A stretch of 64,000 bases of DNA from Candidatus Helarchaeota archaeon (GCA_019058315.1 JAHPZH010000002.1:352001-416000), one strand, 5' to 3'. Shown: positions 11,873 through 41,284, numbered from the stretch's first letter. Notes: generated by a model from the letters alone, not told the origin. Numbers and translations are program-made.

Positions 11873-11881
11873 AATATTTCC

Positions 11882-12965: not shown

Positions 12966-12978
12966 ATGACTATCTCCG

Positions 12979-13616: not shown

Positions 13617-14828
13617 TTATATTATAAGTTCATTAACTAATTCTACAATGTCCTTAAATACTAATTTTGATCCGCTTTCTTTAATTGCATCCATTAGATT
13701 ACGTTGACAGAATGGACATGATGAAACTAAAATTTCCGCACCAGTGTCTTCAGCTTCTTTTATTCGGTCGATTGCAGTTTCTAAAGCCATATCTTTAAAT
13801 GCAGCCTTCACACCACCACCAGCACCGCAGCACCAAGCATTTTCCTGATTTCTTACCATTTCAACAAGCTTCAGTCCAGGAATGGCTTTTAAAATCCTTC
13901 TAGGCTGTTTATAAAGACCTCTACGCCTCGGCCTTGAATCGGACATTATACCTCTACCGATATGACAAGGGTCGTGGTAAGTAACCGTCTTATTTAATTC
14001 CTTAAGTTTTATCTTTCCATCTTTAATCAGTCTGTCTAGAAACTGTGTTATATGTATCAATTCAATATCTAATTTCTCTCCCAATAACTCAGGATAGTCA
14101 ACTAAAATAGTTCGATAACAACCTGCACAAGAAAAAATAAGCTTTTTTATACCTGCTTTTTTTATAGCTTCCATATTCTTTTTTGCTAATTCCATTGCTT
14201 GCTTTTGCATACCAGTTCGTAATAACGGACTTCCACAACAAATTTCTTCAGAACCAAGGATACGAAAGGGAGTATTTGTTTTATTTAAAATTTCTACAGT
14301 ATCTTTTGCAAGCTCTTTTTCTCTATAAGCCGATGTACATCCCACAAAATATGCAAGTTCTGCATTTGGGTCAATTTTTACATCTTTTGATAGCCAATCA
14401 AATCGTTGTCCATGTGGGTCTCCATAAGGGTTATTATTTTCAGCAGTACTCTTTGCAAAACCTAGATGTTGGGGCATAGGTCCCCATTCCATTTCTGCTA
14501 GCTTAGTCCTTAATGCTTCAATTATAGCAACATTATCCATACCTTTGAATTCTTTACAAGTAAGTGCACATGCACCGCAAGTGGTGCAAGCCCAAACAAG
14601 CTCTTTTAATGCTTCTGATGGTTCTTTTATTTCACCCTCGATGATAGCTCTCGCAATTTCCATACGTCCAACTGCATAATATGAGATAAAACCAAATTTT
14701 TTACCGCTTGGGCAACATTCTAGCCATTCATCTAGTGTCCAGTAATTAAATTGGTTACAGCCCATACAATGACCGCATGTTATAACATCATCTCTATATT
14801 CATCTAATTTTTTAACTTTTATTGTCAT
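13617..14828 (-). CDS. HdrD/GlpC-like Fe-S oxidoreductase with two CCG domains
   Basis: CGHCMGC...CP and CTTCGACALTC; 'FVGC', 'CCGSP', 'CAGC', 'YHDPCH', 'CCGAGGG', 'SCPFC'. Confidence 0.9.
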   Translation of the reverse strand: MTIKVKKLDEYRDDVITCGHCMGCNQFNYWTLDEWLECCPSGKKFGFISYYAVGRMEIARAIIEGEIKEPSEALKELVWACTTCGACALTCKEFKGMDNVAIIEALRTKLAEMEWGPMPQHLGFAKSTAENNNPYGDPHGQRFDWLSKDVKIDPNAELAYFVGCTSAYREKELAKDTVEILNKTNTPFRILGSEEICCGSPLLRTGMQKQAMELAKKNMEAIKKAGIKKLIFSCAGCYRTILVDYPELLGEKLDIELIHITQFLDRLIKDGKIKLKELNKTVTYHDPCHIGRGIMSDSRPRRRGLYKQPRRILKAIPGLKLVEMVRNQENAWCCGAGGGVKAAFKDMALETAIDRIKEAEDTGAEILVSSCPFCQRNLMDAIKESGSKLVFKDIVELVNELII

Positions 14829-14829
14829 T

Positions 14830-19892: not shown

Positions 19893-21185
19893 ATGACAGA
19901 AAAGGTAGATCATTATCCTATGTGGAAAAATTTAGGTCTTGATCTTGAAAAACATGATCAATTATTAGCAATATTGCCTGATATTTACAAAAAAATTTAT
20001 ATCGAGACTCAAAAAAATCGTCCCGACATGAGTTTCTGGGACTTTGTTGTCGGAGATATACATGGAATTAGAATCAAAGAATTAAAAGAAGCAAAAGAAA
20101 AAGGTCAAAAAATTCTAGGTACATTTTGCCTTTATGTTCCAGATGAATTAATATTTGCAGTTAATGCAATTTCGGTAGGGCTTTGTGGGGGAACGAATTT
20201 CTCTAATTATGCTGCAGAAGGAATAGTTCCACCAAACCTTTGTCCATTAATAAAATCTGCCTTAGGTTTTGCTCTAGGAAATATTTGTCCCTATTTCAAT
20301 TCTCTAAACTTATTGGTTGGAGAAACAACATGTGATGGAAAGAAAAAAGCTTGGGAAGTTATGGAAAAATATTTCCCTTGTGAGTTATATGTTGTGGAAA
20401 TTCCCCAATGCAAAGACCGACCACAAGCAAGAGAGCATTGGATTGCAGAACTAAAAGCATTAGTTAAAAAGTTGGAAAATCTGACTAGTAATAAACTTAC
20501 GTTTGAGAATCTAAAAGCGGCAATGGAAAAAATAGAAAATAAAAGAAATCAAATTAGAAGAGTTTATCAAGCAAGAAAAGCCGATCCTCCTCCTATATCT
20601 GGAAAAGACGCCCTTTTAGTATCACAAGTTGCGTTCTATGATGATCCCGATAGAGAAATTCAAATGGTTGGGAAGCTTGCAGATGAATTGGAAAAGAGAA
20701 TAAGAGATGGGGTTGGTGTAGTTAAAAAAAGTACTAAAAGAATTTTGATTTCTGGAACTCCTATGGCGATACCAAACTGGAAATTACATCAAATAATAGA
20801 AACTAGTGGGGCTATTGTGGTTTGCGAAGAAACTTGCACTGGAACAAGATATTTTGACGCTAAACTGGAAATTACTGGAAAAACGTTAGAAGGATTGATC
20901 GGAAATTTGGCTGAGAGGTATTTAAATATTAATTGTGCTTGTTTCACTCCTAATGAAGCAAGAACTGAGGATATAAAAAGACTTGTAAAAGAATACAAAG
21001 CCGATGGTGTAGTTCTATATTCATTATCATTCTGTCAGCCTTATATAATCGAATCAATCGCCATTGAAAAAAAATTAAAAGAAATAGGAATCCCAACAAT
21101 CTCAATTGAAACCGATTACTCAAGCGAAGATGAGGGACAATTAAAGACCCGAATAGAAGCATTCCTAGAAATGATTAAAAAATAA
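19893..21185 (+). CDS. Double-cubane-cluster reductase (DCCP)-like member of the 2-hydroxyacyl-CoA dehydratase family
   Basis: 'HGIRIKEL', 'GTFCLYVP', 'GLCGG', 'LCPLIKS', 'CPYF', 'GETTCDGKKK', 'EETCTG', 'NCACFTPN', 'FCQPY', 'ETDYS..D.GQLKTRIEAF'. Confidence 0.82.
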   Translation: MTEKVDHYPMWKNLGLDLEKHDQLLAILPDIYKKIYIETQKNRPDMSFWDFVVGDIHGIRIKELKEAKEKGQKILGTFCLYVPDELIFAVNAISVGLCGGTNFSNYAAEGIVPPNLCPLIKSALGFALGNICPYFNSLNLLVGETTCDGKKKAWEVMEKYFPCELYVVEIPQCKDRPQAREHWIAELKALVKKLENLTSNKLTFENLKAAMEKIENKRNQIRRVYQARKADPPPISGKDALLVSQVAFYDDPDREIQMVGKLADELEKRIRDGVGVVKKSTKRILISGTPMAIPNWKLHQIIETSGAIVVCEETCTGTRYFDAKLEITGKTLEGLIGNLAERYLNINCACFTPNEARTEDIKRLVKEYKADGVVLYSLSFCQPYIIESIAIEKKLKEIGIPTISIETDYSSEDEGQLKTRIEAFLEMIKK

Positions 21186-21414: not shown

Positions 21415-22665
21415 GTGTTTTTATTGGCTTGGCATGAAAAGGTAAAAGAAATAAAAGAAAGAAGACTTAAGGAATTGGAAGGTGTTGATATAAAAAGTAT
21501 ACTAGCCGCTGGTGATAAAGAAATTTATAATACAATCCCAGATAGTGTATTTTCCAAACCTTATCTACCTTTATGTACACAAGTTTGGAAATTTTTTAAG
21601 TATATGGATTGGCATTACTTTGATAGTATCTATGCCGATTTTGCAGAAGCATGCCTTGATGAACTAGTTTTGCGGATGGAGGAAGCAATTGAGGTCTCTA
21701 AAGCTTACTCAGAAGGTAAATTGAAAGATCCTAAGAAAACAATATGTTATTGGATTTTACCACCAGTTCTAGTTGTCAGGGCAGATTTAATACAGGGTGC
21801 GATCAGGCTTGTGTATGGAAACTCGGCTGATATAACCTTCATGGGTGTCTCAGACTTCGATAAAGAAGTTCTTTTTGGAATAAACTTTCATTTCGAAAAT
21901 GGGCTTGCAACAAACTATTGGTATATGAAACCTGGTGATGAATTTCTCGATAAACGGCATATGAAACTGGGAACTAAACTTAAAGATTTGCCAAAAGAAA
22001 TACCCGACTTTCATGAAGCAGCAGGTAAAATCCGTGATATTTTATTAGATGTAAGAAATATTCAAGATCCTAATCATGCTCAATCTGCATACAATGTATG
22101 TTTATTTTTAATGTCAGCAGGTCCAAATAATGGTGTTTTTGTAAGTAATTTCGATGAATACAGCTTCATGTGGGAGGGAATTAACAGTTATAAATTGAAT
22201 GAGGAATGTAAAACTGACATTTTAAAAGACACTATCCAATTTTATGAGCCATGGCCACCAATTTTCCTTCAGCTTACCCGTTTAAAAAGAGATCTCTGGA
22301 TAAAACGGATTTCAGGTCTTCTAATTGACAAACAACTCTATTGTCAATACGTATTGAACAAGAAACTCTTTGATATTTTACCAGTAAAAGAAGTACTTGA
22401 AAAAGATTGGGAAGAAGGTGTTCCTACTCCCGCTCAAACTATTGCCCATGAATTCTCAGATTATAAAAATTGGCGATTTGGTTATAAATTACCAGAAGGA
22501 CCTCGTATTCACTATGAAGATTTCGGTTTATCTCTTAAAGAAGCTATGGGAGGTTTTTTAACAGATATAACTTGGCAAACTGAACCACCCTTTACAAGAG
22601 ATAATTTAATTTCCATTGGTCATGGATTAAATACAAAAATTATAAAAAAGGATGAAGAGACTTAA
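21415..22665 (+). CDS. Hypothetical protein, paralog of 22918..24084 (acr-associated unknown family)
   Basis: Long ORF; shares PPVLxVRxDL, YGNSxDITF, RHMKLG, DILxDVRN, SAY, EEGVPTP with its neighbour. Confidence 0.85.
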   Translation: MFLLAWHEKVKEIKERRLKELEGVDIKSILAAGDKEIYNTIPDSVFSKPYLPLCTQVWKFFKYMDWHYFDSIYADFAEACLDELVLRMEEAIEVSKAYSEGKLKDPKKTICYWILPPVLVVRADLIQGAIRLVYGNSADITFMGVSDFDKEVLFGINFHFENGLATNYWYMKPGDEFLDKRHMKLGTKLKDLPKEIPDFHEAAGKIRDILLDVRNIQDPNHAQSAYNVCLFLMSAGPNNGVFVSNFDEYSFMWEGINSYKLNEECKTDILKDTIQFYEPWPPIFLQLTRLKRDLWIKRISGLLIDKQLYCQYVLNKKLFDILPVKEVLEKDWEEGVPTPAQTIAHEFSDYKNWRFGYKLPEGPRIHYEDFGLSLKEAMGGFLTDITWQTEPPFTRDNLISIGHGLNTKIIKKDEET

Positions 22666-22917: not shown

Positions 22918-24084
22918 TTGACTCATACTTATGGAGAGATACCAGATGACGTTGTGACGAAACGTTTCGTTCCCTTGGCAGAAAATTTATATTCATTATT
23001 TCAGGAACTAGGTTGGGATTATTTCTATGAAGAATTTACAGATAAAGGCACTCAATTTTTCGAGAAAGTCCCAGATTTTTTAAGTGATAAATTTCAAAGG
23101 GCAGTAACGACAGCTAAAAAGGTTATAGACGGATCAATACCAACACCTGAGAATGTATTTACAACATTCTTCTTTCCCCCTGTGTTATATGTACGAACTG
23201 ATCTACAAATGGGCAGTACTAAACTTATCTATGGAAATTCGACTGACATTACATTTATTGTCATGAATGATATGAATTATAATTTGGAACTCTTAATAAA
23301 TGCACACATGGAGGATGGAATTCCAGTAGATTATTGGTTCATTAAAAGTGGTGACGAAGTCTTTGATAGAAGACATATGAAGCTTGGTTTTAGACTTGCA
23401 GAGATTCCTTCAAAAACAAAGGACTTTTTCAAAAGTGGGCTTCGTATATTGGATATTTTAAGAGATGTTAGAAATGAACGAAGTCCACAATGGTCCGATT
23501 CTGCATATTCCATGGCAATGAATTGGGCTGGTGGATCAACCAACATGTTCATGGAGTCATCAAGTTACAATGTACTCGGACAACTTTGGGATGGTGTAAA
23601 CGCTAAAAAGGAATATGGTATGCCCGATATGTACTTTGGATACATCCCTTACCCTCCGATATTGAAGATGCTACTATCAATGGGACGTCCAGAGTTCATG
23701 ATAAGAATTGAAGGTTTGCTAAGTCATAATCGCTTATTTATTCATGCATATGAACCTGAACACTATGAATTTATGAAATTCATCTCACCAGAAGCATTAG
23801 AATGGAGCTTTAGGAAAATGAAGGAAGAAGGTGTGCCAACTCCTAGACAGTCTTTAGGTTGCCATGTACCTAAATTAAAAGATAAAAAAACATATAAAAA
23901 TGAAGAGTTCGGATTTGTATACCCCGAAGGAACAAGAATAATGCCTTACGAATGGGGCCTAACAGATGATGAAGCATTCAGCGGAATTTATACCGATATT
24001 TCACATGAAACTCCGTCGGAACCATTTTATGGGAAGGAACATGTAGTCAATATAGGCGTCGGTAAAGACGTGAGACCAATTTAA
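22918..24084 (+). CDS. Hypothetical protein, paralog of 21415..22665 (acr-associated unknown family)
   Basis: TTG start after AGGAG; full-length colinear similarity to the upstream gene. Confidence 0.85.
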   Translation: MTHTYGEIPDDVVTKRFVPLAENLYSLFQELGWDYFYEEFTDKGTQFFEKVPDFLSDKFQRAVTTAKKVIDGSIPTPENVFTTFFFPPVLYVRTDLQMGSTKLIYGNSTDITFIVMNDMNYNLELLINAHMEDGIPVDYWFIKSGDEVFDRRHMKLGFRLAEIPSKTKDFFKSGLRILDILRDVRNERSPQWSDSAYSMAMNWAGGSTNMFMESSSYNVLGQLWDGVNAKKEYGMPDMYFGYIPYPPILKMLLSMGRPEFMIRIEGLLSHNRLFIHAYEPEHYEFMKFISPEALEWSFRKMKEEGVPTPRQSLGCHVPKLKDKKTYKNEEFGFVYPEGTRIMPYEWGLTDDEAFSGIYTDISHETPSEPFYGKEHVVNIGVGKDVRPI

Positions 24085-24262
24085 TTAATTCTATATTTTA
24101 ACAACCAATATTTTTTCTTTTAATTATTTAATTCCTTGGAAGAGGACTTAGTATTTCTTTATTAGGAAAAAGATCTTTTTATTTACTTATCTATTTATTA
24201 AAAAATTTAATAAAATAATAGCTATTTTCTCTTGTCCTAGTTTTTTATCATTTATTTTTATT

Positions 24263-24279
24263 ATGTCTATATTTGACAT
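24263..24279. promoter_or_regulatory. Palindromic operator candidate ATGTC-TATATTT-GACAT upstream of acrA
   Basis: Perfect 7-bp arms TTATGTC-N7-GACATAA (24261..24281), about 134 nt upstream of the acrA ATG. Confidence 0.6.
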
Positions 24280-24413
24280 AAACATTTTTGAAAAAAAAAT
24301 CGTCTAAAGATTAACCAAGATTTAGTTTAATAGTCGGAATTTTCATTTATTATTGTTAAAAAATAATGAAGTTAGAGCAATTTATCTAATTTAAATAATT
24401 TTAAGGCGATTGT

Positions 24414-26213
24414 ATGTCAAAAGAAGGAAAAAAATCTGAGAAAACAATTCGAGAGATAGATTATGGCTATGATCTTTTCTCAATAGCAAAAAAATTTCTT
24501 CCAGTTGAACAGGAACGTGTTGTTTATAAGACAATGCAAAAGGTCTTTGGCGTAAATCCATTAGCTCCTAGAGACAACTCTATGTATCGCAGAGGTGGAT
24601 TTAAACAAAATAAAAGAAAAGTAGAATTCATGAAAGCTGCTAAAAAAATTGCCAAAGAGAGAGGAATTCCCATGTATAATCGTGCAGTCGGAATTCCACT
24701 TGGACAAAGAGCGTTAGAGCCATATCTAATATCTGGTACAGATACTTTTGTTGATTTTGATGATGTTCATCATGTTAATAACGCTGCCATCCAACAGATG
24801 GTAGATGATATTAAAAGAACCGTAATTATCAATCTTGATATTCCACATCGTGTTCTCCAAGTTAGAGCAGGAAAGGAGATTACACCTGAAACTGTAAATC
24901 TTTACTTAGAAACTATTCAGCACACCATGGCAGGAGGTGCTGTAGCCCAAGAGCATATGGCTGAAATAAATCCTGGATTAACATTTGATGGATATGCGAA
25001 GGTAATCACAGGAGATGATGAAATACGGGACATGCTCGACAAGAGATTTTTATTAGATATTGATAATTTATTCCATCCAAGTCGGGTTGAACAATTAAAA
25101 AGAGCAATTGGTAGCACAATGTTTTTACTTGCCCGAGTTCCAACCATAGCGGTTCGGATGGCAGATGGTGGAGTTGTATATCGATGGGCTGCAATGCAAT
25201 CTACTATGGCATTTGTTGCAAGTTACCGATTAACAGGAGAAAGCATTATCTCAGATTTAGCTTATGCTGCAAAAAGTGCACAGCTTGTCCAGATGGGTGA
25301 AAGAACGTGGTTTGCGAGAGCAAGGAGTCAAAATGAAATAGGTGGAATACCATTTGGCTATATGAATGACTTTATGCAATCAGATTCTCGACTTCCAGCA
25401 AAACCGTTCCTAAGGGTCATACATGAAGATGGCGTTGATGTGGCAAGAGAATATATAGGTGCATTAACAAAAGGCCTTGGTGCTATTGGGGCAGTTTTGA
25501 CTGAACAATATTGGTTAAGTTTTTATATGTCTGGAGGTATTGGATTTGCCACCACAGTTGCAAGCGCAGGATATTGTGGTAATGTATTAGAAGAATTCAC
25601 TGACCAAACTACGGAAATTCTTGCAAAATATGGCAAGGTGCTTAAAGTCAAACCAAATTGGGATACAGTCCGTTGGGTTATTGATCTTATTATACAATAT
25701 TGCATGGAGACCTATGAAAAATATCCATCATTGACCGAATATCATTGGGGTGGTGCACATAGAATATCAGTAATTGGGAACCTTTCAGCGACTGTAGCTT
25801 CTTTATTAACAGGCTCTTCAACTTTAGGCTGTATGGCTATGCATTATTCAATAGGTTTGTTAATGAAGGAAGGTTGGTTAAGAACGGGTTGGGCAGGTCA
25901 AGAAGTCCAAGATCACGTGGGTATCGCTTATCTTTGTAGTCCCAGAATAGAGGAAGGAGTCTTTCCAGAACTTAGAGGCATGAATTATCCTGTTGCAAGC
26001 TTTACTGCTGGTCATGCTAGCGGATATATTGGCGCTGCGGCAGGAACTGCTCTTCATAGGGGTCAACCTTGGTCAACTTCTCCTATAGTCAAAGCCGCAT
26101 TTGCAGATCCTCATTTAATATTTGATTTCGCAGAACCAAGGCTAGCAATTGCTAAAGCGTGTTTGAGAGAATTCAAACCCGCAGGTGAACGAGATCTAAT
26201 TATTCCAACATAA
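24414..26213 (+). CDS. mcrA: Methyl/alkyl-coenzyme M reductase alpha subunit, divergent ACR type
   Basis: 'ERGIPMYN', 'GIPLGQR', 'DDVHHVNNAAIQQMVDDIKRT', 'EITPETVNLYLE', 'AVAQEHMAE', 'RARSQNEIGG', 'YMSGGIGF', 'PELRGMNYP', 'AFADP', 'EFKPAGER'. Confidence 0.96.
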   Translation: MSKEGKKSEKTIREIDYGYDLFSIAKKFLPVEQERVVYKTMQKVFGVNPLAPRDNSMYRRGGFKQNKRKVEFMKAAKKIAKERGIPMYNRAVGIPLGQRALEPYLISGTDTFVDFDDVHHVNNAAIQQMVDDIKRTVIINLDIPHRVLQVRAGKEITPETVNLYLETIQHTMAGGAVAQEHMAEINPGLTFDGYAKVITGDDEIRDMLDKRFLLDIDNLFHPSRVEQLKRAIGSTMFLLARVPTIAVRMADGGVVYRWAAMQSTMAFVASYRLTGESIISDLAYAAKSAQLVQMGERTWFARARSQNEIGGIPFGYMNDFMQSDSRLPAKPFLRVIHEDGVDVAREYIGALTKGLGAIGAVLTEQYWLSFYMSGGIGFATTVASAGYCGNVLEEFTDQTTEILAKYGKVLKVKPNWDTVRWVIDLIIQYCMETYEKYPSLTEYHWGGAHRISVIGNLSATVASLLTGSSTLGCMAMHYSIGLLMKEGWLRTGWAGQEVQDHVGIAYLCSPRIEEGVFPELRGMNYPVASFTAGHASGYIGAAAGTALHRGQPWSTSPIVKAAFADPHLIFDFAEPRLAIAKACLREFKPAGERDLIIPT

Positions 26214-26294
26214 TTTCAAAGTTTATTTAATCATTTTAATTTATTTAGCATAGAAATAACCTAGAAATGTGATTTAAAAAAAAGATGATAAAAA

Positions 26295-27896
26295 ATGGAA
26301 GATTTTATTGTTGTTAAAAACCTATTTAAAGAGTTTGAAAGAGGCTCCCCTGCTTATATTGATATAAGCTTTACAATTAAAGAAGGAGCCTCATTTGGTA
26401 TTTTGGGTAAGTCAGGATCTGGAAAAAGTGCTTTAATGCATGCACTTCGTGGCACTCCAGAATATAAACCGACGAAAGGAACAGTCATATATAGGATTTC
26501 TGCATGTCCTAATGATGATTGTCTTTATATCGATTACCCCTCATTAGCAAATTCAAGTTGCCCAAATTGCAACTCAACTTTGGAATTGAAAGAATTCGAT
26601 TTTTGGAAAGAGGCAGAAACTAACTCTCCCCTTTTTCGCGCACTTTATAATCGAATATCAATTATGTTGCAACGTACGTTCGCACTTTACGGAGAACTAC
26701 CCGTATTAGCAAATCTAACTGAGGCTCTAGAAAAAGCAGGCGTTCCTGAAAGACGAAGAGAGGGTAAAGCAGCATTATTACTATCAAAAGTTAATTTAAC
26801 ACACCGTTCAATGCATATTGCCCGTGACTTATCAGGAGGAGAAAAACAACGTGTAGTTTTCGCTATGAGTCTGGCGAAAAATCCACTTCTTTTCCTTGCA
26901 GATGAACCCACTGGAACACTTGATGTAATAACAAGTAAAAAAATCCATAAAACAATGAAGACGGCTGTTAATAAGGATAAACTTACGCTTATTGTGACTT
27001 CACATTGGCCACTTGCCGTTGAAGAATTAACATCAGAAGCAATATTATTAGAGGATGGAAAAATTACGATGCATGCTGATTCTTCTGAAGTGGCTAAGAA
27101 GTTTTTAAGTCAAGTAGAAAAAGTAGAGAGGACAAAAAGAGAGTTTAAAAATAAAATTATGAAAGTTGAGAATTGTATTAAACATTATTACACATTTGAT
27201 AGGGGAATTATTAGAGCTGTAGATGGTGTCTCTCTTGATATTTATGAAAATGAGATTTTTGGGCTTGTTGGTCTTTCAGGTTCTGGAAAAACAACTCTGT
27301 CCCTAATGATGTGTGGTTTGAAAGATATTACAATGGGAAAAATCTGGGTCAATATAGGGGATGAATGGGTCGATATGAGCATCCCAGGTCCATATGAACG
27401 TGGTAGAGCTACAAATTATATGGACATTCTTCACCAAGAATATGCTCTCTATCCTCATTTGATAGTTCTACAAAATCTAACTGGGGCAATAGAATATCCG
27501 ATTCCAGAGGAAATGAAAACCAAAAAAGCTTATGACTCATTAAAGGCAGTAAATTTCACAAATGATGAAATTGAAAATATTCTCTATAAATTTCCAGAAC
27601 AAATTAGTGAAGGAGAACGACACCGAGTTGCCATTTCTCGAATTTTAATAAAAGAACCGAAAATTTTGTTTTTTGATGAGGCAACTGGAACTGCAGACCC
27701 ATTAACTCGGATGGAAATAGTACGTTCAATAAAAAAATCCCGTGATGACCTTAATCAAACATATGTCATAATAAGTCATGATATTGATTTTGTCTTAGCT
27801 GCTTGTGATAGAGCAGCATTAATGAAAGATGGTCACGTTTTAAAAGTTGGAGAACCCGCGGAGATCATAGAATATTTTAAAGAGGTAGAGAAATAA
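26295..27896 (+). CDS. atwA: Methyl-CoM reductase system component A2 (tandem ABC ATPase)
   Basis: Two Walker A motifs (GKSGSGKS, GLSGSGKT), Cys insert CPNDDC..CPNC, 'IMLQRTFALY', 'HIARDLSGGEKQR', 'GDEWVDM', 'LHQEY', 'SEGERHRVA'; no TM partner. Confidence 0.93.
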   Translation: MEDFIVVKNLFKEFERGSPAYIDISFTIKEGASFGILGKSGSGKSALMHALRGTPEYKPTKGTVIYRISACPNDDCLYIDYPSLANSSCPNCNSTLELKEFDFWKEAETNSPLFRALYNRISIMLQRTFALYGELPVLANLTEALEKAGVPERRREGKAALLLSKVNLTHRSMHIARDLSGGEKQRVVFAMSLAKNPLLFLADEPTGTLDVITSKKIHKTMKTAVNKDKLTLIVTSHWPLAVEELTSEAILLEDGKITMHADSSEVAKKFLSQVEKVERTKREFKNKIMKVENCIKHYYTFDRGIIRAVDGVSLDIYENEIFGLVGLSGSGKTTLSLMMCGLKDITMGKIWVNIGDEWVDMSIPGPYERGRATNYMDILHQEYALYPHLIVLQNLTGAIEYPIPEEMKTKKAYDSLKAVNFTNDEIENILYKFPEQISEGERHRVAISRILIKEPKILFFDEATGTADPLTRMEIVRSIKKSRDDLNQTYVIISHDIDFVLAACDRAALMKDGHVLKVGEPAEIIEYFKEVEK

Positions 27897-27897
27897 A

Positions 27898-28395
27898 ATG
27901 AAAGATTTAGATTCAGAACTGGAATATGAGTATAAAGAACCTTCAGGAAAATGGTGGGAAGAACTCGAATGGATTTTTCCTCCAGAAGAAGACCGAGAAC
28001 CCACATGTTATGAAATGGTTCAGAGTTTTATTATAAATAAAGTTGTTCCTTGTGCTAAGTGTGTGGAATTATCGGGACGGTTTTTACCTCGTGTAATTAC
28101 CATTGAAGCTGAACACCCGATTCGAGGAAATGAGTACTCACGAATAATTATAAGTCCAGTCGATGTAGCAGACGGAGCTCCAACAGTAGAACCCGACCTC
28201 TTAATCCATATTAAATATTACGACTTGTTAAGAGTATTAGATGGAGAATTAGATATAATGAAACCATTATTTTTTGGAGAAGGCTGGTTAATCGGTAATA
28301 CAACAACTGGTTTTGATTTGAAAGATTTAGTCGATGTAGCAAATGGAAAAGAATTAGTTGAGAGACCTAAAGCTTGGCCAATAGGTCACCCATAG
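27898..28395 (+). CDS. SCP2 (sterol carrier protein 2)-like lipid-binding protein inside the acr operon
   Basis: 'EPDLLIHIKYYDLLRVLDGELDIMKPLFFGEGWLIGN' follows the SCP2 C-terminal pattern (PD-x-x-I...L..G.LD.M.....G....G); 1 nt after atwA, 11 nt before acrB. Confidence 0.65.
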   Translation: MKDLDSELEYEYKEPSGKWWEELEWIFPPEEDREPTCYEMVQSFIINKVVPCAKCVELSGRFLPRVITIEAEHPIRGNEYSRIIISPVDVADGAPTVEPDLLIHIKYYDLLRVLDGELDIMKPLFFGEGWLIGNTTTGFDLKDLVDVANGKELVERPKAWPIGHP

Positions 28396-28406
28396 GAGAG
28401 TTTAAT

Positions 28407-29801
28407 ATGATTAAAGATAAAGTTGACGTTTATAATGATGAGGGTGAATGCATAGGAGAAGATTTACCCATAAAAGCATTCTCTCCCTTATATAATCCGT
28501 ATATGGTAAAAGTTTATAATATGATCAAGAGAACCGCATTTATTTCACTAGAAAAATTAGAACAAAATATACGTAAAGGTCGTTTTGGTGAAATGACAAC
28601 CTTACGTCAGGACGAAATACAGATGCCTCAATTTGAACGGAAATGGAAGCTTGTTGATATGGGGCCTGAAATTGCGGAAAAAATGAATAAAATCATTTCT
28701 ATGGACGAAGGATTTAATGGTAAGGATGATGGTTCGAATGTAGATCTGATAGCGGGTGGTAAAATGCTAAGAGTATCCTTACCACAAAGAAGAATAGATA
28801 TTGCAGCTTCCATTGCCCCACTTTATACAATAACTGGGACTGCACTCGCTCAATCTCTTATTGATCTTCTTGATTTAAACCCAATGAATGATATTGATGG
28901 TTGTAATATAGTAAAAACGGCAATTTTTGGTCGTTTTCCACAAACCAGAGAATTTGGATCTTCATGTCCTATTTTTGCTTTTTGTAAACCTCCTCAATTG
29001 GAAGAAGGCATAGGAACTCTGTTCCGTGGTCTCATGATAAACCATATAGTTGCTTTGTCCAATTTTCGGACTTTCGATGCAGTAGCATTAGCAACTTTAT
29101 TAGAACAAGCAGGACAAACAGAGATGGGAAATGCTATAGGGTGGTATGAGCGCTATAATTTATTGACAACCGCATATCAAGGATTTAATGGAAATAACTT
29201 AGTGTTAGATTTAATTAAAGAATACGGTACTGATGGGACAGTTAGTGATGTTGTACATGGTCTAATTGAAAGATCTTTAAATGATGGGGTTATATATCCT
29301 AAAGGAGATAAATTCCCACACACTCAACCTTCTGGATATAAAATTTATTCAACTAAAGATTATCCGCTTTGGAATGCATATTCATGTGCTGGGTTGTTAG
29401 CTGCTGTTTGTGTAAATGTAGGTGCATCTCGTGCTGCACAAGGTTGTGGCGCAGTAATGTCTAGTTTTAGTGATATTCTTTCATTTGAAACTGGGGGTCT
29501 TCCAGATCCAGATGCTGGAAGGATTTTTGGGACTGCACTCGGTTTTACATTTTATACACATTCAATTTATGGTGGGGCTGGACCTGGGGCTTTTACGATG
29601 GACCATGTTATAACTCGCCATACTAGTGGCTTTTTTACACCATGTGTTGCTGCAGCGATGTGTCTAGATGCAGGAACCCAAATCTTTACTCCAAAATTGA
29701 CTTCTGGAAATTATTTTACGCTTCGAAAAGAAATACCACTGCTCACTGATGTTGTTGTTAAGACCACTGAGGCTGCAAAGGAGATAAAAAATAAATTTTA
29801 A
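28407..29801 (+). CDS. mcrB: Methyl/alkyl-coenzyme M reductase beta subunit
   Basis: 'DKVDVYNDEG', 'SPLYNP', 'FGRFPQT', 'EMGNAIGWYER', 'AYQGFNGNNLV', 'LWNAY', 'HSIYGGAGPG', 'HVITRH', 'LDAGTQ'. Start set to the ATG at 28407 after GGAGAG. Confidence 0.96.
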   Translation: MIKDKVDVYNDEGECIGEDLPIKAFSPLYNPYMVKVYNMIKRTAFISLEKLEQNIRKGRFGEMTTLRQDEIQMPQFERKWKLVDMGPEIAEKMNKIISMDEGFNGKDDGSNVDLIAGGKMLRVSLPQRRIDIAASIAPLYTITGTALAQSLIDLLDLNPMNDIDGCNIVKTAIFGRFPQTREFGSSCPIFAFCKPPQLEEGIGTLFRGLMINHIVALSNFRTFDAVALATLLEQAGQTEMGNAIGWYERYNLLTTAYQGFNGNNLVLDLIKEYGTDGTVSDVVHGLIERSLNDGVIYPKGDKFPHTQPSGYKIYSTKDYPLWNAYSCAGLLAAVCVNVGASRAAQGCGAVMSSFSDILSFETGGLPDPDAGRIFGTALGFTFYTHSIYGGAGPGAFTMDHVITRHTSGFFTPCVAAAMCLDAGTQIFTPKLTSGNYFTLRKEIPLLTDVVVKTTEAAKEIKNKF

Positions 29802-29802
29802 G

Positions 29803-30687
29803 GTGAAAATTATGGAAGAAGATGTTTTTGCAGTTGCAGATATTGAAAAATTCAAGAGAAAGAAAAAGAAAGTAGAAAGAAAAGAAGTAGAGAAAAAAGT
29901 TGAAGTTATAGAGGGTAAATATGAACCTCAATTTTACCCAGGACAAGGTCCGGTATCGGAAAGAAGGCGAAAATTATTAAATAAAAATAAAAAGTTATTG
30001 AAATTACGAAGTATTCCAGATGATGATGTGGTTAAATTACTCGGACATCGTCTACCGGGCAGTTTATATCGTAGTATTCATCCCCCTCTAGACGAATTAA
30101 TCCAAGAATATGATCCTATTAAAATGCTTGTAAAACCTACCCCAGGAGCACGTGCAGGTGATCGTGTCCGCTTTGTCCAATTCACTGATAGTTTTTGGAG
30201 ACCTCCTTTTGCCCCTTGGTTAAGAGCAAGGTATTATTTCAATCGTCTACGAGGTGTGGATACCGTTATTTACTCGGGACGTGAAATTTTAGAAATGAGG
30301 GAACGTGATCTAGAGGCAGCCACAAAAATACTAATTGAAACAGAACTTTTCGATCCAGCTAGAACAGCTCTTAGAGGAATTACTGTTCATGGTAGTTCAT
30401 TGAGATTAGATACTGATGGATTAATGTTTGACGCTCGACGTCGATATGTATTGGATAAAGACGTTAATGAAGTTGTTTATATTAAAGATATGCATGCAAA
30501 GATGTTAGATAAACCTATCCCGGTAGGAAGACCTTTCAACGAAGATGAATTAGTTGAGTTTGACGTGACTTATAGATGGGATGCTTCGATGTATAAATCA
30601 CGTACTGAAATTTTAACAGTAATTAATAGAATTGCAAAAGGTAGATTATTAGCAGGTTTTAGACCAGAATTAGTAAATGATTTTTAA
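29803..30687 (+). CDS. mcrG: Methyl/alkyl-coenzyme M reductase gamma subunit
   Basis: 'PQFYPG', 'LGHRLPG..Y.SIHPPL', 'PTPGARAGDRVRFVQFTDS', 'SGREILEMRERDLE', 'RGITVHG', 'DGLMFD'. The ATG at 29812 (after AGGTGA) is an equally likely start. Confidence 0.95.
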   Translation: MKIMEEDVFAVADIEKFKRKKKKVERKEVEKKVEVIEGKYEPQFYPGQGPVSERRRKLLNKNKKLLKLRSIPDDDVVKLLGHRLPGSLYRSIHPPLDELIQEYDPIKMLVKPTPGARAGDRVRFVQFTDSFWRPPFAPWLRARYYFNRLRGVDTVIYSGREILEMRERDLEAATKILIETELFDPARTALRGITVHGSSLRLDTDGLMFDARRRYVLDKDVNEVVYIKDMHAKMLDKPIPVGRPFNEDELVEFDVTYRWDASMYKSRTEILTVINRIAKGRLLAGFRPELVNDF

Positions 30688-30706
30688 TAAAAAGGATTGA
30701 AAATTT

Positions 30707-31570
30707 ATGACAGAAGAAATTGATGTTGAATTAACAGAAAAAATAAAAGAATTATGCCTGAAAGCAGGTGCAGACAAAGTAGGAATTGCAGATGCTGATA
30801 AAGCGGTAGGATCATCACAAGGTCATGCAAATCCAAGGGATATTCTCCCTAATGCGCGGTCAATAATTGTTTTAGCTTCAAAAATCCCCGATAGTGCCAT
30901 CGAATGTAAACATTCTGATGAATTAATCCACGCAAACTTTGTTGCCGTGCAACAAGCAATGAATATGGAACTTGTAAGAATAGGTTATAAACTCTCTCGA
31001 TTTTTAGAAAAATTAGGATATGATTCTATTCCAATTGCACCAGATATTCCTCGAGAAGAAAGTAGGAATATTTGGGTAGGAACTATATCTCATAAATATG
31101 TGGCACAACTCGCTGGTTTAGGTGAAATTGGTCTTGCGAACCTATTTCTTACACCTGAATGGGGTCCAAGAGTCAATTTATGTTGTATACTTACTGATGC
31201 ACCCCTACAACCAGATGGACCTAAATTAGTTGATAAAGTTTGTACAAAATGTAATAAATGTATAGAAGCATGTCCAACTAGAGCCTTAACTTCGAATAAT
31301 TATCCACCATTTAACTTCAATTTAAATCGGTGTCTATGGGCTACTCTTGGATTTTATCGGTTAACAAAAGTTGAGGAACCACCCGAAGACTGGATAGATG
31401 CAAAACCAAGCGCAAATATTGTTCTTCCCAAATATGAGGAAAAATACCCACAAATTCGCACTTTTGAAAATTGGGCTTCTAGATTGGGCGACTTTCCCCA
31501 ATGTATTGCATGTATGGCTGCATGTCCAATAGGAAAGGAGACTCATCAAAAAAGAATTGAGGGCGAATAA
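30707..31570 (+). CDS. Epoxyqueuosine-reductase/reductive-dehalogenase-like cobalamin and 2x[4Fe-4S] protein
   Basis: 'GADKVGIA', 'P.DILPNARSIIV', 'SHKYVAQLAGLGEIG..NLFLTPEWGPRV', CTKCNKCIEACP, CIACMAACP; 19 nt after mcrG. Confidence 0.82.
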   Translation: MTEEIDVELTEKIKELCLKAGADKVGIADADKAVGSSQGHANPRDILPNARSIIVLASKIPDSAIECKHSDELIHANFVAVQQAMNMELVRIGYKLSRFLEKLGYDSIPIAPDIPREESRNIWVGTISHKYVAQLAGLGEIGLANLFLTPEWGPRVNLCCILTDAPLQPDGPKLVDKVCTKCNKCIEACPTRALTSNNYPPFNFNLNRCLWATLGFYRLTKVEEPPEDWIDAKPSANIVLPKYEEKYPQIRTFENWASRLGDFPQCIACMAACPIGKETHQKRIEGE

Positions 31571-31604
31571 TCTCTTTTATTTTTGTTAAAAAAATAAAAA
31601 AAAA

Positions 31605-31826
31605 TTAAGATTCATGATCTCTTGGCATATAGTATATTACCGCCATTAAAATAAGGATTATCGTGAAAAAAACCAAAACAAACATCACATTAAGTGCATT
31701 TGGTGGAACTAAGTATGATGGGGTCATGCTTAATTGACAGAAATTATAAAAAACTAGTCCTATCATTCCTCCTATCAAAGTCATAAAGACAAAAACCGAT
31801 TTTTGATGATTTTTCAAGGACATCAT
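31605..31826 (-). CDS. Small two-TM membrane protein
   Basis: 73 aa with two hydrophobic helices; fills an intergenic gap. Confidence 0.5.
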   Translation of the reverse strand: MMSLKNHQKSVFVFMTLIGGMIGLVFYNFCQLSMTPSYLVPPNALNVMFVLVFFTIILILMAVIYYMPRDHES

Positions 31827-31952
31827 TTTTTTACACTAGATTATAATCGACTCTAATGTATAAAATCTAATGATTGCGGCAAAGGGGTTAAAAAATCTTA
31901 CTAATATGGCAAAAACCTTAGTAGCAAGCATAAAAAAATTTTAAAAATAAAT

Positions 31953-37020: not shown

Positions 37021-39036
37021 TTGTTACCAATTAATAAAGTCGTCTTGTTTAAGACGGGAATCGGTTATTTCGAAAGAAAAGATAAAATAGATCTAGCAAA
37101 GAAATCAATAAATTTAAGTTTCAAACGAAAAGTTATGAATGATATATTAGCCACACTTACCATTGCGACGGGAAACAGTTTAGTTACTGGAATAAGTTAT
37201 GAAGGTGCAGAAACTGATCTTCAAAGAGCTCTCGAAGACGCTTTGATTAAGATCCCCAATGAAAACAGTTTTATAACTCTTTTAAAACAGCTGGTGGGAA
37301 GCACTGTCACCTTAAAAATTGTTGGAGAAGTTATAACTGGAATTGTTCTTGGTGTGCAAGAATTGAAAAAAGGAATTGAAAAAGCAATCATCAATGAACC
37401 GTATCTTGTTCTACGTGATATTAGTGGTTCGATTAGGAATATTAAAATTTCTGATCTTACTGGACCAAGTGCCCAATTATCAGTTAGTGATGATAAAATG
37501 AACAAAGAACTTCAATTCTTTATCGAAAAAATGTATACAAGCAAAAAAAAGGACATGAAACCCGTTACAATCTTCTTTGAGGGTGAAGGAAAAGATGATG
37601 TTACCGTATCTTATCTTCATGAGATGCCCAGCTGGAAAGTATCTTATCGTCTAACATTTATCGATGAAGATAATTTCTTACAAGGATGGGCGCTAATAGA
37701 CAATACATTAGATGAAGATTGGGAAAATATTGAACTCAGTTTAATTGCAGGTTTACCTATTTCATTTATTTACGACCTCTATACACCTAACTGGATTCTA
37801 AGACCTACTGTAGCTCGTAAGGATAAATATGACATCCAAGTAACTGAATTTGAGGGTGAACTTGAAGAATTACGCGAAATGAAAGAAGAAGCAAAGAGGC
37901 CAATGGCTCAACCAGCTGCTCCACGACCAATGAAAGCAATGGCTGGGAAAAGGAGAAGTAAGTTTAAAGTAACTGCAAAAGAAAAGATGGTAGCTACGGC
38001 ATCTGATAAGTCTGATGCATTAGATAGGCTAGAATCTACAAAGGTGGAGGCAAAAGGAGAAGAAGCTGGAGATTTTTTTGAATACAAGATAATGGTTCCA
38101 GTTACTGTAAAGCGAAATCAATCTAGCCTTGTTCCAATCTTACAATCAAAGATAACGGGTAAAAAGATGAGCGTTTATAATGAATCAGTTAGAGCCGATA
38201 ATCCAATGTTATGTTGCGAAATTGAGAATGATTCAGGACTTACCTTGGAGGAAGGACCAATCACGGTATATGATGCATCTACATTCATAGGCGAAGCAAT
38301 GCTGCCCTTCGTTAAACAAGGAGAGAAAAGAAGAATTCCTTACTCTGTGGATCTAGGGATAACAGTAAATACAAAAAGGAAAGAAAAATCAGTCGATATA
38401 CATCAAATTAAACTTGGAAAAGATTACCTCTACTCGTTCCAATACTATCTAAAAAAGTGCGAATATCTCGTTAAGAATAAATCTGAAGAAGCTAGAGAAG
38501 TCATCGTCGAACATCCCAAAGAAGATAGATTCGAACTCTATGAAACAGAAAAACCATTTGAAGAGTCTAAGAATTTTTACCGTTATATGGTCAAGGTAGA
38601 TCCAAAAACACAAGCTAAGCTTTTGATTAAAATTAGGCGAGTTGATCGCTCTAGTTGGTACTTTAGCAATGTTTCAAAGTCAGAAATCGATCTTTGGTAT
38701 AAACAGAAATTAATAAATGAAGAAGATAGGGATTTTCTACTAAAAATATGGAAACTTAATACAGAAAAAAATGAAGTCGATAACAAGATTAATGAATTAG
38801 AAAATAAGAAAAACAGTATTATTAATGACCAAAATCGGTTGAGACAAAACCTAAAAAGCATCGGAACAAGTAGGAGTGAAGAACGACTTAGAAACAAATA
38901 TATTACAAAAATGGATGAACAAGAGAATGAATTAGAAAAGATTGAGGCTGAAATCAAAGAATTAACAAAGAAAAGTGAAGAATTAGAACAAAAAATTAAT
39001 GATGAAATTCGAAAACGCCCTGTAGTGGAGGATTAA
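37021..39036 (+). CDS. DUF4139-family protein, type A, copy 1
   Basis: 'VLFKTGIGYFER', 'SYL...PSWKVSYRL', 'QGWALIDNTLDEDWENIELSL', 'LTLEEGP', C-terminal coiled coil 'DQNRLRQNL'. Confidence 0.75.
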   Translation: MLPINKVVLFKTGIGYFERKDKIDLAKKSINLSFKRKVMNDILATLTIATGNSLVTGISYEGAETDLQRALEDALIKIPNENSFITLLKQLVGSTVTLKIVGEVITGIVLGVQELKKGIEKAIINEPYLVLRDISGSIRNIKISDLTGPSAQLSVSDDKMNKELQFFIEKMYTSKKKDMKPVTIFFEGEGKDDVTVSYLHEMPSWKVSYRLTFIDEDNFLQGWALIDNTLDEDWENIELSLIAGLPISFIYDLYTPNWILRPTVARKDKYDIQVTEFEGELEELREMKEEAKRPMAQPAAPRPMKAMAGKRRSKFKVTAKEKMVATASDKSDALDRLESTKVEAKGEEAGDFFEYKIMVPVTVKRNQSSLVPILQSKITGKKMSVYNESVRADNPMLCCEIENDSGLTLEEGPITVYDASTFIGEAMLPFVKQGEKRRIPYSVDLGITVNTKRKEKSVDIHQIKLGKDYLYSFQYYLKKCEYLVKNKSEEAREVIVEHPKEDRFELYETEKPFEESKNFYRYMVKVDPKTQAKLLIKIRRVDRSSWYFSNVSKSEIDLWYKQKLINEEDRDFLLKIWKLNTEKNEVDNKINELENKKNSIINDQNRLRQNLKSIGTSRSEERLRNKYITKMDEQENELEKIEAEIKELTKKSEELEQKINDEIRKRPVVED

Positions 39037-39037
39037 A

Positions 39038-41284
39038 ATGTTAACCATTAAAAGTGCGATATTATATAAGACGGGCGTTGGATATTTCGAAAGATCTGGT
39101 AAAATTGATTTAAGTAAGACGAATAAAATTGTCTTATCATTCAAGAAAAAACTTATGAATGACGTTCTTGCTTCGCTCTCGGTGGCAGGTAAAGATGCGT
39201 TAGTTTCTGGGGTTTCCTATGAGGGTCACGATATTGATTTGGATAGAGCTCTTGAAGATTGTCTAATCAAAGTGCCTGAATTTGATTCATTTATCGTTCT
39301 TTTAAAACAATTAATCGGCAGTCATATTGAAATTATATTGGGTTCTGAAAAAATATCCGGTATAGTTTTAGGAATTCAAAAATTCGAACGAGGAGTCGAA
39401 GGAACTGAAGAAAAAATTATGGAACCGTTCCTAGTTCTATCAGATGATACTGGAGATATTAAAAATATTAAAATAGCTGACATGACAGGACCTGATGCCC
39501 GATTTTCGGTGAGTGATGAAAAGATGAACAAAGAACTGCAATACTTTTTGGAGACTATTTATACATCGAAGAAACGTGATGCAAAAAGCATGACCATTTT
39601 TCTTGAAAAAAAACCAGATTCAACAACTATGGATTCAGAGGTTTCGATTTCTTACCTTCATGAGGTACCTTCCTGGAAAGCTAGCTATCGCCTTCTTCTA
39701 TTTCCTACGGAAACCGTAATCCAAGGCTTTGGTTTGATTGATAATCCCACTGACGAAGATTGGAATGAAATTAATCTATCACTAATATCTGGTCTTCCAA
39801 TATCATTTATATATGACCTTTACTCCCCAAATTGGATTCAACGTCCAAGAGTTCAGCGGAGAACACAATATGATATAACTCCAACAACTTATGAAGAATC
39901 GACAACAGAAGAGGGTTATTTTGATCTTAAAGGGACGGGTGTATTGGGTGATGTTATGATACCAAAACTGGACGCTCATCGGGGTATACCAGCAGAAAAA
40001 ACAGGTGAACAGAGAATGAAACACATGATTCAATCTACAAAAGTAAGTGCTGCTGGAACAGAAGGTGGAGATTTTTTTCAATACGAAATTACAGTCCCCA
40101 TAACAGTAAAACGAAACCAAAGCTCATTGGTTCCTATTTTACAGTCTAATATAAAATCAAATAGAATGTCGGTCTATAATGAAAATGTAAGGAAAGATAA
40201 TCCGATGTTAACCATTGAGCTCACCAATGACACTGGACTTACTTTGGAAGAAGGTCCAATATCTGTATTCGAACTGGACAATTATGCTGGTGAAGCGATG
40301 CTTCCTTTTCTAAAGAAAGATGAAAAAAGAAGAATCGGATATGCAGTAGATCTTGGAGTACTGGTTAATAAAACAACAAAAGAAGATTCATTAAATTTCC
40401 ATGATATCAAAATTGAGAATAACATTCGAGCATTTAGGTACAGGATAAAGAAGGTAGAATATATAATTCGAAATAAATCCGATGATCCGAAAGAAGTTGT
40501 AATAGAACATCCGAAAGAGACTGATTATAAACTATATGAGACTGCTGATCCATTCGAAGAATCCAAAAATTTTTACAGATATAAAGTTTCAGTTGCTCCA
40601 AAGGCATCAGAAAAACTCCTTGTTAAAACGCGTATTGTTGAAAGTACTTATACATATTATTCTGGAGTTTCTAAATACCAAATTGAGGAATGGTATAATT
40701 TAAAATTGATAAATGATCAAGAAAAGGATTTCCTAATGAAAATATGGAAGGTAACAACGAAGTTACAAGATGTCAATGATGAAATTGATAGTAAAACTGA
40801 TGAAAAAAACAATATTTCAACGGATCAAAACCGTTTACGTCAAAATATTAAGGTTTTAGGACCATCTCATGGTGAACGTCAACTTAGAGAAAAATATGTC
40901 AAAAAATTAGAATCCCAAGAAGAAATTCTTGAAAGAATTGATGTGGAAATAGAGAAACTAAATAAAGAAAAAGAAAATCTCGAGTATCTGATAAATAAAT
41001 TAAATGAATTGGATTATGAAAATGGAACATCTCTGAATAATGTAGCATGGGGTTTCTACCTAGTCGGAGAAAGTGAGGTCGTAGTGGAATATGCAAGGAA
41101 AGCAATAGCTCTTGATGATGAGAAGGGTTTTATTTGGGATACATTGGGCTGTGGGTTGTATAGGATTGGAAAAATTAAAGAATCTTATGAAGCATTCTTA
41201 AAGGCAATAGAGTTAAGCCCCAAGGGTGAAGAAGATATAACAAAGGAAATCTATGAAAAAGTTAAAGCTGAATATAACCCCTAA
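39038..41284 (+). CDS. DUF4139-family protein, type B with C-terminal TPR, copy 1
   Basis: Same core as type A plus 'LNNVAWG...IWDTLGCGLY' TPR pair; starts 1 nt after type A. Confidence 0.75.
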   Translation: MLTIKSAILYKTGVGYFERSGKIDLSKTNKIVLSFKKKLMNDVLASLSVAGKDALVSGVSYEGHDIDLDRALEDCLIKVPEFDSFIVLLKQLIGSHIEIILGSEKISGIVLGIQKFERGVEGTEEKIMEPFLVLSDDTGDIKNIKIADMTGPDARFSVSDEKMNKELQYFLETIYTSKKRDAKSMTIFLEKKPDSTTMDSEVSISYLHEVPSWKASYRLLLFPTETVIQGFGLIDNPTDEDWNEINLSLISGLPISFIYDLYSPNWIQRPRVQRRTQYDITPTTYEESTTEEGYFDLKGTGVLGDVMIPKLDAHRGIPAEKTGEQRMKHMIQSTKVSAAGTEGGDFFQYEITVPITVKRNQSSLVPILQSNIKSNRMSVYNENVRKDNPMLTIELTNDTGLTLEEGPISVFELDNYAGEAMLPFLKKDEKRRIGYAVDLGVLVNKTTKEDSLNFHDIKIENNIRAFRYRIKKVEYIIRNKSDDPKEVVIEHPKETDYKLYETADPFEESKNFYRYKVSVAPKASEKLLVKTRIVESTYTYYSGVSKYQIEEWYNLKLINDQEKDFLMKIWKVTTKLQDVNDEIDSKTDEKNNISTDQNRLRQNIKVLGPSHGERQLREKYVKKLESQEEILERIDVEIEKLNKEKENLEYLINKLNELDYENGTSLNNVAWGFYLVGESEVVVEYARKAIALDDEKGFIWDTLGCGLYRIGKIKESYEAFLKAIELSPKGEEDITKEIYEKVKAEYNP

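Follow-up and report, generated by a model that had tools for sequence, protein, structure and literature searches.

How does an archaeon equip an alkyl-coenzyme M reductase (ACR) with its accessory proteins, and are the genes for these proteins kept beside the reductase? This question is raised by positions 24,414 to 31,570 of a 64,000-nucleotide (nt) stretch of Candidatus Helarchaeota archaeon (GCA_019058315.1, JAHPZH010000002.1:352001-416000), the whole of which is called the window here. In this region, six co-oriented genes on the plus strand follow one another in the order acrA-atwA-acrX-acrB-acrG-rdhL, encoding the three reductase subunits (AcrA, AcrB and AcrG), the ATPase AtwA, a protein with an SCP2 fold (AcrX) and an iron-sulfur (Fe-S) protein of the QueG/reductive-dehalogenase superfamily (RdhL). 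We consider it likely that these genes constitute a conserved operon, one of three ACR sets of the host, which provides the reductase with an activator, with AcrX as a docking partner and with RdhL in a supporting role.

The genes are separated by gaps of 81, 1, 11, 1 and 19 nt, given that acrB starts at ATG 28407, which is preceded by GGAGA 7-8 nt upstream. Open reading frame (ORF) calling extends acrB to TTG 28374, and the alignment to the family model begins at residue 14 of this longer ORF. With the ATG start, the ORFs and gaps agree exactly with a first-pass annotation made from the sequence alone, in which the locus was read as a non-canonical ACR operon of an Asgard-like genome. Five of the six genes were named by Pfam and NCBIfam, while acrX (27898-28395) had no family match by sequence. 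The N-terminus of AcrG is extended by about 40 residues.

Comparison with related loci showed that the arrangement recurs. The block atwA-X-acrB-acrG was found in three other genomes of the window's taxonomic order at 64-80% amino-acid identity, and is thus kept in four genomes of two families. The window reads up2-up1-acrA-atwA-X-acrB-acrG-rdhL, where up2 and up1 are two paralogous genes upstream of acrA. Locus L016 reads acrA-up2-atwA-X-acrB-acrG, as does L014, in which acrA is cut by the contig start, and L013 reads up2-atwA-X-acrB-acrG on a contig that starts inside up2, leaving this gene a fragment. A more distant member, L008, with an AcrA 70% identical, has the order acrA-acrB-acrG-X-rdhL. 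The common layout is a different one, acrB-acrG-acrA-X, seen on contig C3 of the host itself and at loci L015 and L018-L021; L017 and L022 additionally have atwA 3' of X, and in L030 atwA is convergent. In all, nine loci have the layout B-G-A-X or B-G-A-X-atwA. Because the layout of the window recurs in relatives, the embedded atwA is a conserved trait of this ACR orthologue group rather than an accident of assembly. Contigs from one independent study (95-99% alike) also bridge the atwA/X, X/acrB, acrB/acrG and acrG/rdhL junctions; the acrA-atwA junction was not bridged among the listed pieces, which come from four runs and are contigs of a few hundred bases, none of them spanning the operon. 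The major published mcr operon types of methyl-coenzyme M reductase (MCR) are BDCGA, BDGA and BGA (PMC9584954). The order in the window fits none of them, so the description of the locus as non-canonical stands.

We infer from the sequence that the six genes are co-transcribed. The region upstream of acrA probably holds its promoter, with a TATA-like TTTAAATA read about 20 nt 5' of the acrA ATG, and the T-rich tract after rdhL is a plausible candidate for an archaeal terminator. A possible alternative, to which we give perhaps one chance in a few, is that acrA has a strong transcript of its own and that atwA-X-B-G(-rdhL) is driven by a second promoter in the 81-nt gap, the gene order then being a rearrangement without functional meaning. 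The AT-rich 81-nt gap is indeed the only sizeable one, a whole gene (up2) fills the position between acrA and atwA in the sister family, and the strand of rdhL differs between relatives. Yet four junctions have gaps of only 1-19 nt, and the atwA-X-B-G block has been retained in four genomes of two families, both of which argue for a single unit.

AcrX is the member of this unit that escaped sequence-based naming. The window protein did not match the Pfam SCP2 model (PF02036) even at E 1, whereas 8 of 15 family members did, the best at 2.3e-8. A model built with AlphaFold (AF2) from the family alignment had a predicted local distance difference test score (pLDDT) of 90.3, and when it was compared with the PDB by Foldseek, the top 45 matches were all SCP2 proteins or SCP2-like C-terminal domains of alkylsulfatases (best E 2.7e-7). 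An independent aligner, VIA, gave a Z of 10.5 to human SCP2, with a root-mean-square deviation of 2.7 A over 110 residues. Given the Foldseek matches, the VIA score and the Pfam matches within the family, the SCP2 assignment of the first-pass annotation is correct at the level of the fold. AcrX shares this fold with the solved proteins 8af2, 4jgx, 1pz4 and UbiJ (6h6p) at a Foldseek probability of 1.00, but differs from SCP2 proteins in its low identity (10-20%) and in two additions, an extra N-terminus of 33 residues and a C-terminal RPxxWPxGHP tail, which the modelling below places in the interface with AcrA. The N-terminal segment contains a WW motif with an invariant Trp. Our literature searches, here and below, covered the open literature; within it, no paper joining alkyl-coenzyme M reductase with SCP2 or a sterol carrier was found.

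The distribution of AcrX follows that of the reductase. The family is tiny, comprising 18 representative clusters among 1.84 billion proteins. When 400 genomes of the phylum were scanned, McrA turned up in every genome of the window's order (7 of 7) and in 0 of the 393 outside it, and full-length AcrX (164-237 bits) was confined to the 7 McrA-bearing genomes, with a copy number about equal to that of acrA; all other matches in the scan were partial and reached at most 48 bits. Moreover, acrX lies within about 2 kb of ACR genes at 18 of the 19 loci with readable context, which include BA2 and three unassigned metagenome contigs; the exception is G123:C32. A search for related loci with a narrow AcrX alignment recovered only BA2 and one relative. 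In the host genome (5.79 Mb, 12 contigs, three McrA genes), each acrA is accompanied by its own acrX copy, making three ACR sets in total.

AcrX is also predicted to bind the reductase. A complex model of AcrA and AcrX scored 0.65, compared with 0.00 for the best of three controls; this mark is reached by 58 of 80 solved complexes and by 2 of 110 mismatched pairs. At least 84% of the contacts agreed between model runs, and the partner pLDDT was at least 84. On AcrX, the contacts involve the conserved tail (154-165) and the 119-136 loop. On AcrA, they involve residues 19-35, residues 333-338 and the helices 398-433, the first two lying in an N-terminal extension (~30 residues) and an 18-residue insertion (~331-346) that are common to ACR-type sequences only. 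No structure of an MCR bound to an SCP2-fold protein is known to us, so it seems unlikely that the model merely reproduced a complex already solved. In this model, then, AcrX docks on the ACR-specific parts of AcrA.

The second accessory gene, atwA, encodes the A2 component of the MCR system, a true AtwA as the first-pass annotation had it. The protein scored 672.4 bits against TIGR03269 (cut-off 517.1) over residues 5-533, and its orthologues in L013, L014 and L016 are 74-77% identical and hold an equal position. A2 is a component of the complex in which ATP drives the reduction of F430 to Ni(I) (PMC12176620). The host genome has two atwA genes for its three ACR sets, and a search of the open literature for atwA together with alkanes returned only noise. 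The further absence of mcrC and mcrD that had been noted for the operon was borne out, as no MCR_C or MCR_D match was found by Pfam between acrA and rdhL. One mcrD and one mcrC lie side by side on contig C11, together with a marker-7-like MCR_C protein; the sole MCR_D match in the host genome is C11:299259-299567. The description of the operon as self-contained therefore does not hold. McrC and McrD are able to act in trans (PMC9584954), which fits the remote position of their genes in this genome. AcrX itself was also considered as McrD or McrC and rejected, having no match to the MCR_D model (PF02505) in a genome whose true mcrD and mcrC were found on C11.

AcrX could nevertheless be an analogue of McrD, that is, a chaperone for assembly of the ACR or for insertion of its cofactor rather than a carrier of substrate or product. 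It is about the size of McrD, is encoded in operons that lack mcrD, occurs once per acrA, is predicted by modelling to bind AcrA, and often has as its gene neighbour atwA, which encodes an activation factor. However, it does not match MCR_D, the genome retains a separate, true mcrD, and it has the SCP2 fold, in whose solved representatives the ligands are lipids, fatty acids or isoprenoid quinones. We therefore regard a chaperone function as unlikely, at about one chance in five.

The last gene of the operon, rdhL, had been taken for a cobalamin reductase and a downstream B12 enzyme. Its best families are TIGR02486 (69.6 bits, cut-off 160.35) and TIGR00276 (54.7 bits, cut-off 200), and its PDB matches, to PceA (8q4h, 2.5e-12) and QueG (5d08, 6.2e-12), extend across a shared core motif. 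With these proteins RdhL has in common this core and two Fe-S cluster motifs, CxxCxxCxxxCP and C...CxxCxxxCP; Cys189, Cys266, Cys269 and Cys273 are invariant, and the core AGLGxxGxxN..TPExGPR is so in 14 orthologues. It differs from them in its length (287 residues, against 380-440 in solved QueG), in having no match to PF08331 (DUF1730) or to the HEAT-type repeats of the tRNA-binding domains, in lacking a twin-arginine motif at the N-terminus and hence a Tat signal, and in being linked with atwA and ACR genes and not with rdhB or genes for modifying tRNA. By sequence, RdhL belongs to the broad QueG/RdhA superfamily and is assignable neither to QueG nor to RdhA. A role as a tRNA QueG is unlikely, and no paper on epoxyqueuosine reductase with Syntrophoarchaeum was found.

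Homologues of RdhL above 190 bits were found only in Helarchaeota-type metagenome-assembled genomes (MAGs), BA2-like contigs, a Hadesarchaea MAG and Ca. Syntrophoarchaeum butanivorans, below which the scores fall to 127 bits. In the scan of 400 genomes, only the 7 genomes with McrA gave matches of at least 348 bits, after which the highest score was 130 bits. In BA2 and L027, rdhL stands directly 3' of atwA. Because of this recurrent pairing with atwA, our best guess is that RdhL gives redox or cofactor support to the activation of the ACR, a tentative assignment to which we would give somewhat more than one chance in three. The earlier reading as a cobalamin reductase or downstream B12 enzyme is tentative; RdhL lies in its superfamily below both family cut-offs, and its pairing with atwA suits a part in activation no less than one after the ACR.

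A second RdhL (53% identical) is encoded on contig C12 (5971-6801), where it adjoins a tRNA-intron endonuclease gene and unrelated genes that give no functional hint. About 5 kb away lies a gene for a B12-binding radical SAM protein (C12:11288-13895, L028), 48% identical to the one adjacent to McrA in BA2, and this gene adjoins a CobB/CobQ-like amidotransferase gene.

RdhL has also been weighed as a corrinoid enzyme acting downstream of the ACR, which is in essence what the first-pass annotation proposed. The alkyl group would be taken off or passed on through an attack of Co(I) on the alkyl-S-CoM bond; RdhL would then be the missing link from alkyl-CoM to acyl-CoA. The QueG/RdhA core that it carries wraps cobalamin in PceA and QueG, high-similarity RdhL is confined to ACR lineages (Helarchaeales-type, BA2, Hadesarchaea and Ca. 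Syntrophoarchaeum), and rdhL is the final gene both of the operon in the window and of L008; no paper tying the family to ACRs was found. On the other side, corrinoid binding by RdhL is putative, the fixed neighbour of rdhL, where it has one, is atwA and not a gene for beta-oxidation or an alcohol or aldehyde enzyme, and rdhL stands apart from ACR genes in Ca. Syntrophoarchaeum and L026. In view of this evidence, a corrinoid function downstream of the ACR appears improbable to us, with odds below those we give the chaperone function of AcrX.

The reductase served by these accessory proteins is of a divergent type. All MCR domains, PF02745 and PF02249 (alpha), PF02783 and PF02241 (beta) and PF02240 (gamma), scored far above their cut-offs, whereas AcrA and AcrB fell below the cut-offs of the canonical equivalogs (TIGR03256, 560 against 767.75 bits; TIGR03257, 396 against 516.25 bits). 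In a quick IQ-TREE phylogeny of 81 sequences, a branch with 100% support in the Shimodaira-Hasegawa-like approximate likelihood ratio test separated 15 canonical McrA from 66 ACR-type sequences that include the AcrA of the window, and the grouping with methane-type MCRs, named beforehand as the result that would count against an ACR, was not found. Within the ACR-type sequences, this AcrA is one of the 8 members of a clade whose sister (96%) is the BA1/BA2 group, and its two paralogues in the host genome group in a different Helarchaeota-labelled clade. Residue positions were transferred to Methanothermobacter marburgensis numbering via Methanothermus fervidus McrA and PDB alignment offsets. 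On this basis the axial nickel ligand is kept, Gln179 of AcrA aligning with alpha Gln147, as are the positions Arg271, Gly445 and Asp450. The eight substitutions are His257 (methyl-His) to Ser, Arg270 to Ala, Tyr333 to Thr, Gln400 to His, Phe443 to Trp, Cys452 to Val, Asn481 to Thr and Val482 to Ala, and in the alignment the substituted pocket residues are shared with ACR sequences only. Phylogeny and sequence features thus place AcrA in the ACR type, with the ACRs of Syntropharchaeia, BA1/BA2 and Helarchaeota, and not in the methane type. That the enzyme is instead a methane-type MCR for methanogenesis or methane oxidation is exceedingly improbable, since, although its three subunits match MCR families and retain the axial Gln, AcrA branches away from canonical MCRs, the alpha and beta subunits lie under the equivalog cut-offs and several canonical active-site and modification positions of AcrA are lost.

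The host is an Asgard archaeon of the Helarchaeales type, from the sole McrA-bearing order in its phylum, in agreement with the Asgard-like origin read from the sequence. The best matches of AcrA are in MAGs labelled Hodarchaeota (96% identity) or Helarchaeota, followed by Bathyarchaeota BA2 (60%), BA1 (58%) and Syntropharchaeia (52%). This single GTDB order carries mixed NCBI labels, namely Helarchaeota, Hodarchaeota, Promethearchaeota, Lokiarchaeota and even 'Candidatus Deferrimicrobium sp.', and name-based taxon counts for ACRs will therefore mislead. As to the substrate, a hexadecane-degrading Hadarchaeon culture forms hexadecyl-CoM, and its ACR is reported to be a close relative of those of Bathyarchaeia and Helarchaeales (PMC10811742). 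Because this related ACR forms hexadecyl-CoM, the best inference for the enzyme of the window is a multi-carbon, probably long-chain, alkane.

Together, these data lead us to propose the following working of the system. AcrABG would use F430 to turn a multi-carbon alkane, probably a long-chain one, together with CoM-S-S-CoB (the heterodisulfide of coenzymes M and B), into alkyl-CoM. AtwA, encoded beside its client enzyme, would be the ATPase in the machinery of reductive activation by which the nickel is brought to Ni(I), with McrC, McrD and marker proteins acting in trans from another contig. AcrX would most likely bind AcrA at the N-terminal extension and the insertion that are specific to ACRs and hand a hydrophobic ligand, either the alkane or the alkyl-CoM formed from it, to the enzyme or away from it. 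RdhL, as a two-cluster Fe-S protein with a predicted tetrapyrrole-binding core, would give redox or cofactor support to activation together with AtwA.

Several points weigh against this proposal. Within the AT-rich 81-nt gap 3' of acrA there could be an internal promoter or attenuator. To our knowledge, no Helarchaeales organism is in culture, and the substrate is therefore deduced from phylogeny alone. In the docking run AcrA was modelled without its partner subunits, which may mask the docking surface in the assembled (alpha-beta-gamma)2 enzyme. Nor is an SCP2 fold proof that AcrX carries lipid or alkane. Furthermore, in L013 and L014 rdhL follows acrG closely but in convergent orientation, and in Ca. 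Syntrophoarchaeum and L026 it stands alone, away from ACR genes. In the RdhL homologues of Ca. Syntrophoarchaeum, three of four Cys are missing from the first Fe-S motif, while the second motif and the core are retained, and these homologues may hold one cluster only.

The conserved unit extends beyond the six genes. All six are present as first described, but sequence comparison places up2 and up1 (Table 1) in the conserved ACR gene set as well, making the unit larger than had been drawn. Orthologues of up2, 59% identical, lie inside the operon between acrA and atwA in L016, L014 and L013, and BA2 has a distant up1/up2 relative adjoining its McrA. The family has about 40 paralogues in the host genome (tblastn), and its homologues are solely 'hypothetical protein' entries of Helarchaeota-type MAGs. 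Although the AF2 model of up1 had a pLDDT of 90.6, its fold had no PDB profile match and a best Foldseek E of 0.02; VIA gave a best Z of 4.4, a weak value, to SCP2 and LCP folds. Shape searches of the Atlas gave TM scores of at most 0.33 by query and 0.48 by match, and feature searches low recognition; none of these amounts to a significant match to a PDB or Atlas structure. Invariant His, Glu, Asp and Arg residues hint that the family may be an enzyme.

Table 1. Positions of the operon genes, their flanking regions and the neighbouring features in the window.
Feature	Position	Strand	Description
acrA	24414..26213	+	Alpha subunit, 599 aa; MCR_alpha_N 338 bits, MCR_alpha 86 bits
atwA	26295..27896	+	MCR system component A2, double ABC-type ATPase; TIGR03269, ABC_tran matched twice
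acrX	27898..28395	+	165-aa SCP2-fold protein ('SCP2' in the first-pass annotation)
acrB	28407..29801	+	Beta subunit, 464 aa from ATG 28407; Pfam MCR_beta_N and MCR_beta
acrG	29803..30687	+	Gamma subunit, 294 aa; MCR_gamma 305 bits (residues 42-287), TIGR03259 279 bits
rdhL	30707..31570	+	287-aa QueG/reductive-dehalogenase-superfamily Fe-S protein
Upstream region of acrA	24085..24413	+	AT-rich, 329 nt; read from sequence
T-rich tract	31571..31610	+	3' of the last gene, rdhL; read from sequence
up2	21415..22665	+	416 aa; unknown-fold, Helarchaeales-restricted family; no Pfam or NCBIfam match
up1	22918..24084	+	388 aa; paralogue of up2
FAD_binding_4 and Fer4_8/CCG pair	13617..16290	-	GlcD-like and HdrD-like (Pfam); 8 kb upstream of the operon
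Co-oriented gene group	9868..16290	-	FAD_binding_4, Fer4_8/CCG, two DUF2889, PHP, DUF169, FrhB-like Fe-S protein
Double-cubane-cluster anaerobic reductase	19893..21185	+	NF040772, 474 bits; HGD-D family; just upstream of up2
Two-gene module, first copy	37021..41284	+	Two genes, 671/672 aa and 748/748 aa across the two copies; weak DUF4139
Two-gene module, second copy	45265..49534	+	The same two genes; weak DUF4139
Small hydrophobic ORF (seeming)	31620..31830	-	In the 380-nt gap between rdhL and a GH31 glycosidase gene

Further from the operon, the FAD_binding_4 and CCG pair also stands beside ACR genes in L007, L008, BA2 (L009), L016 and contig C11 of the host, and in the window it is part of a longer co-oriented group. 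Downstream, the DUF4139-like two-gene module looks duplicated, its copies lying about 8 kb apart with genes for tetratricopeptide (TPR), WD40 and leucine-rich (LRR) repeat proteins between them.

The reductase itself is of a kind already known. The ACR of Helarchaeota has been published (Seitz et al. 2019, PMC6478937), and three 'Hel clusters' per MAG have been described (Zhao and Biddle 2021, PMC9723726), to which the present system is alike in enzyme type, host group and the three ACR sets per genome. These papers describe mcrABG clusters; in the passages of them that were searched, atwA, sterol and epoxyqueuosine are absent from PMC9723726 and 'component A2' from PMC6478937, so the order A-A2-X-B-G-rdhL and its accessory genes are, as far as those passages go, not described there. 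A matching gene set is found in the MCR-like gene island of Bathyarchaeota BA2 (contig LIHK01000056), which shares AcrA (60% identity), AtwA (56%), AcrX (41%) and RdhL (47%), the FAD_binding_4 and CCG pair and a distant up1/up2 relative. In BA2, however, these genes are spread across about 17 kb and occupy both strands, with X divergent from acrA, atwA-rdhL a separate pair and marker-protein/McrC genes adjacent, whereas the window holds six genes in one tight co-oriented block with McrC and McrD elsewhere. With the mcrBDCGA operon of methanogens, to which atwA is unlinked, the window shares three homologous subunits, the cofactor logic and the A2 ATPase family; it differs in gene order, in the absence of mcrC and mcrD, in the embedded atwA and in the extra genes for the SCP2-fold and RdhA/QueG-like proteins. 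As far as the open literature could be searched, the conserved accessory layout is undescribed.

The value of this locus thus lies in its accessory set and not in the reductase, whose type and occurrence in Helarchaeota have already been published. Two gaps exist in the oxidation of alkanes by ACRs, namely how a water-insoluble alkane gains access to the buried nickel and how alkyl-CoM is converted to acyl-CoA, and the production of active ACR in methanogen hosts is limited by the need for accessory factors. Here the operon offers a short and concrete list of candidates, with the structural genes, the activation ATPase, AcrX and RdhL in one compact conserved block. A bolder picture, in which RdhL, with a corrinoid or an F430-type tetrapyrrole, would strip the alkyl group off alkyl-CoM and AcrX would channel the long hydrophobic chain between the reductase and RdhL, is in our estimation a long shot, at around one chance in ten; if true, RdhL would be the missing enzyme of archaeal alkane oxidation and AcrX a true fourth component of the ACR.

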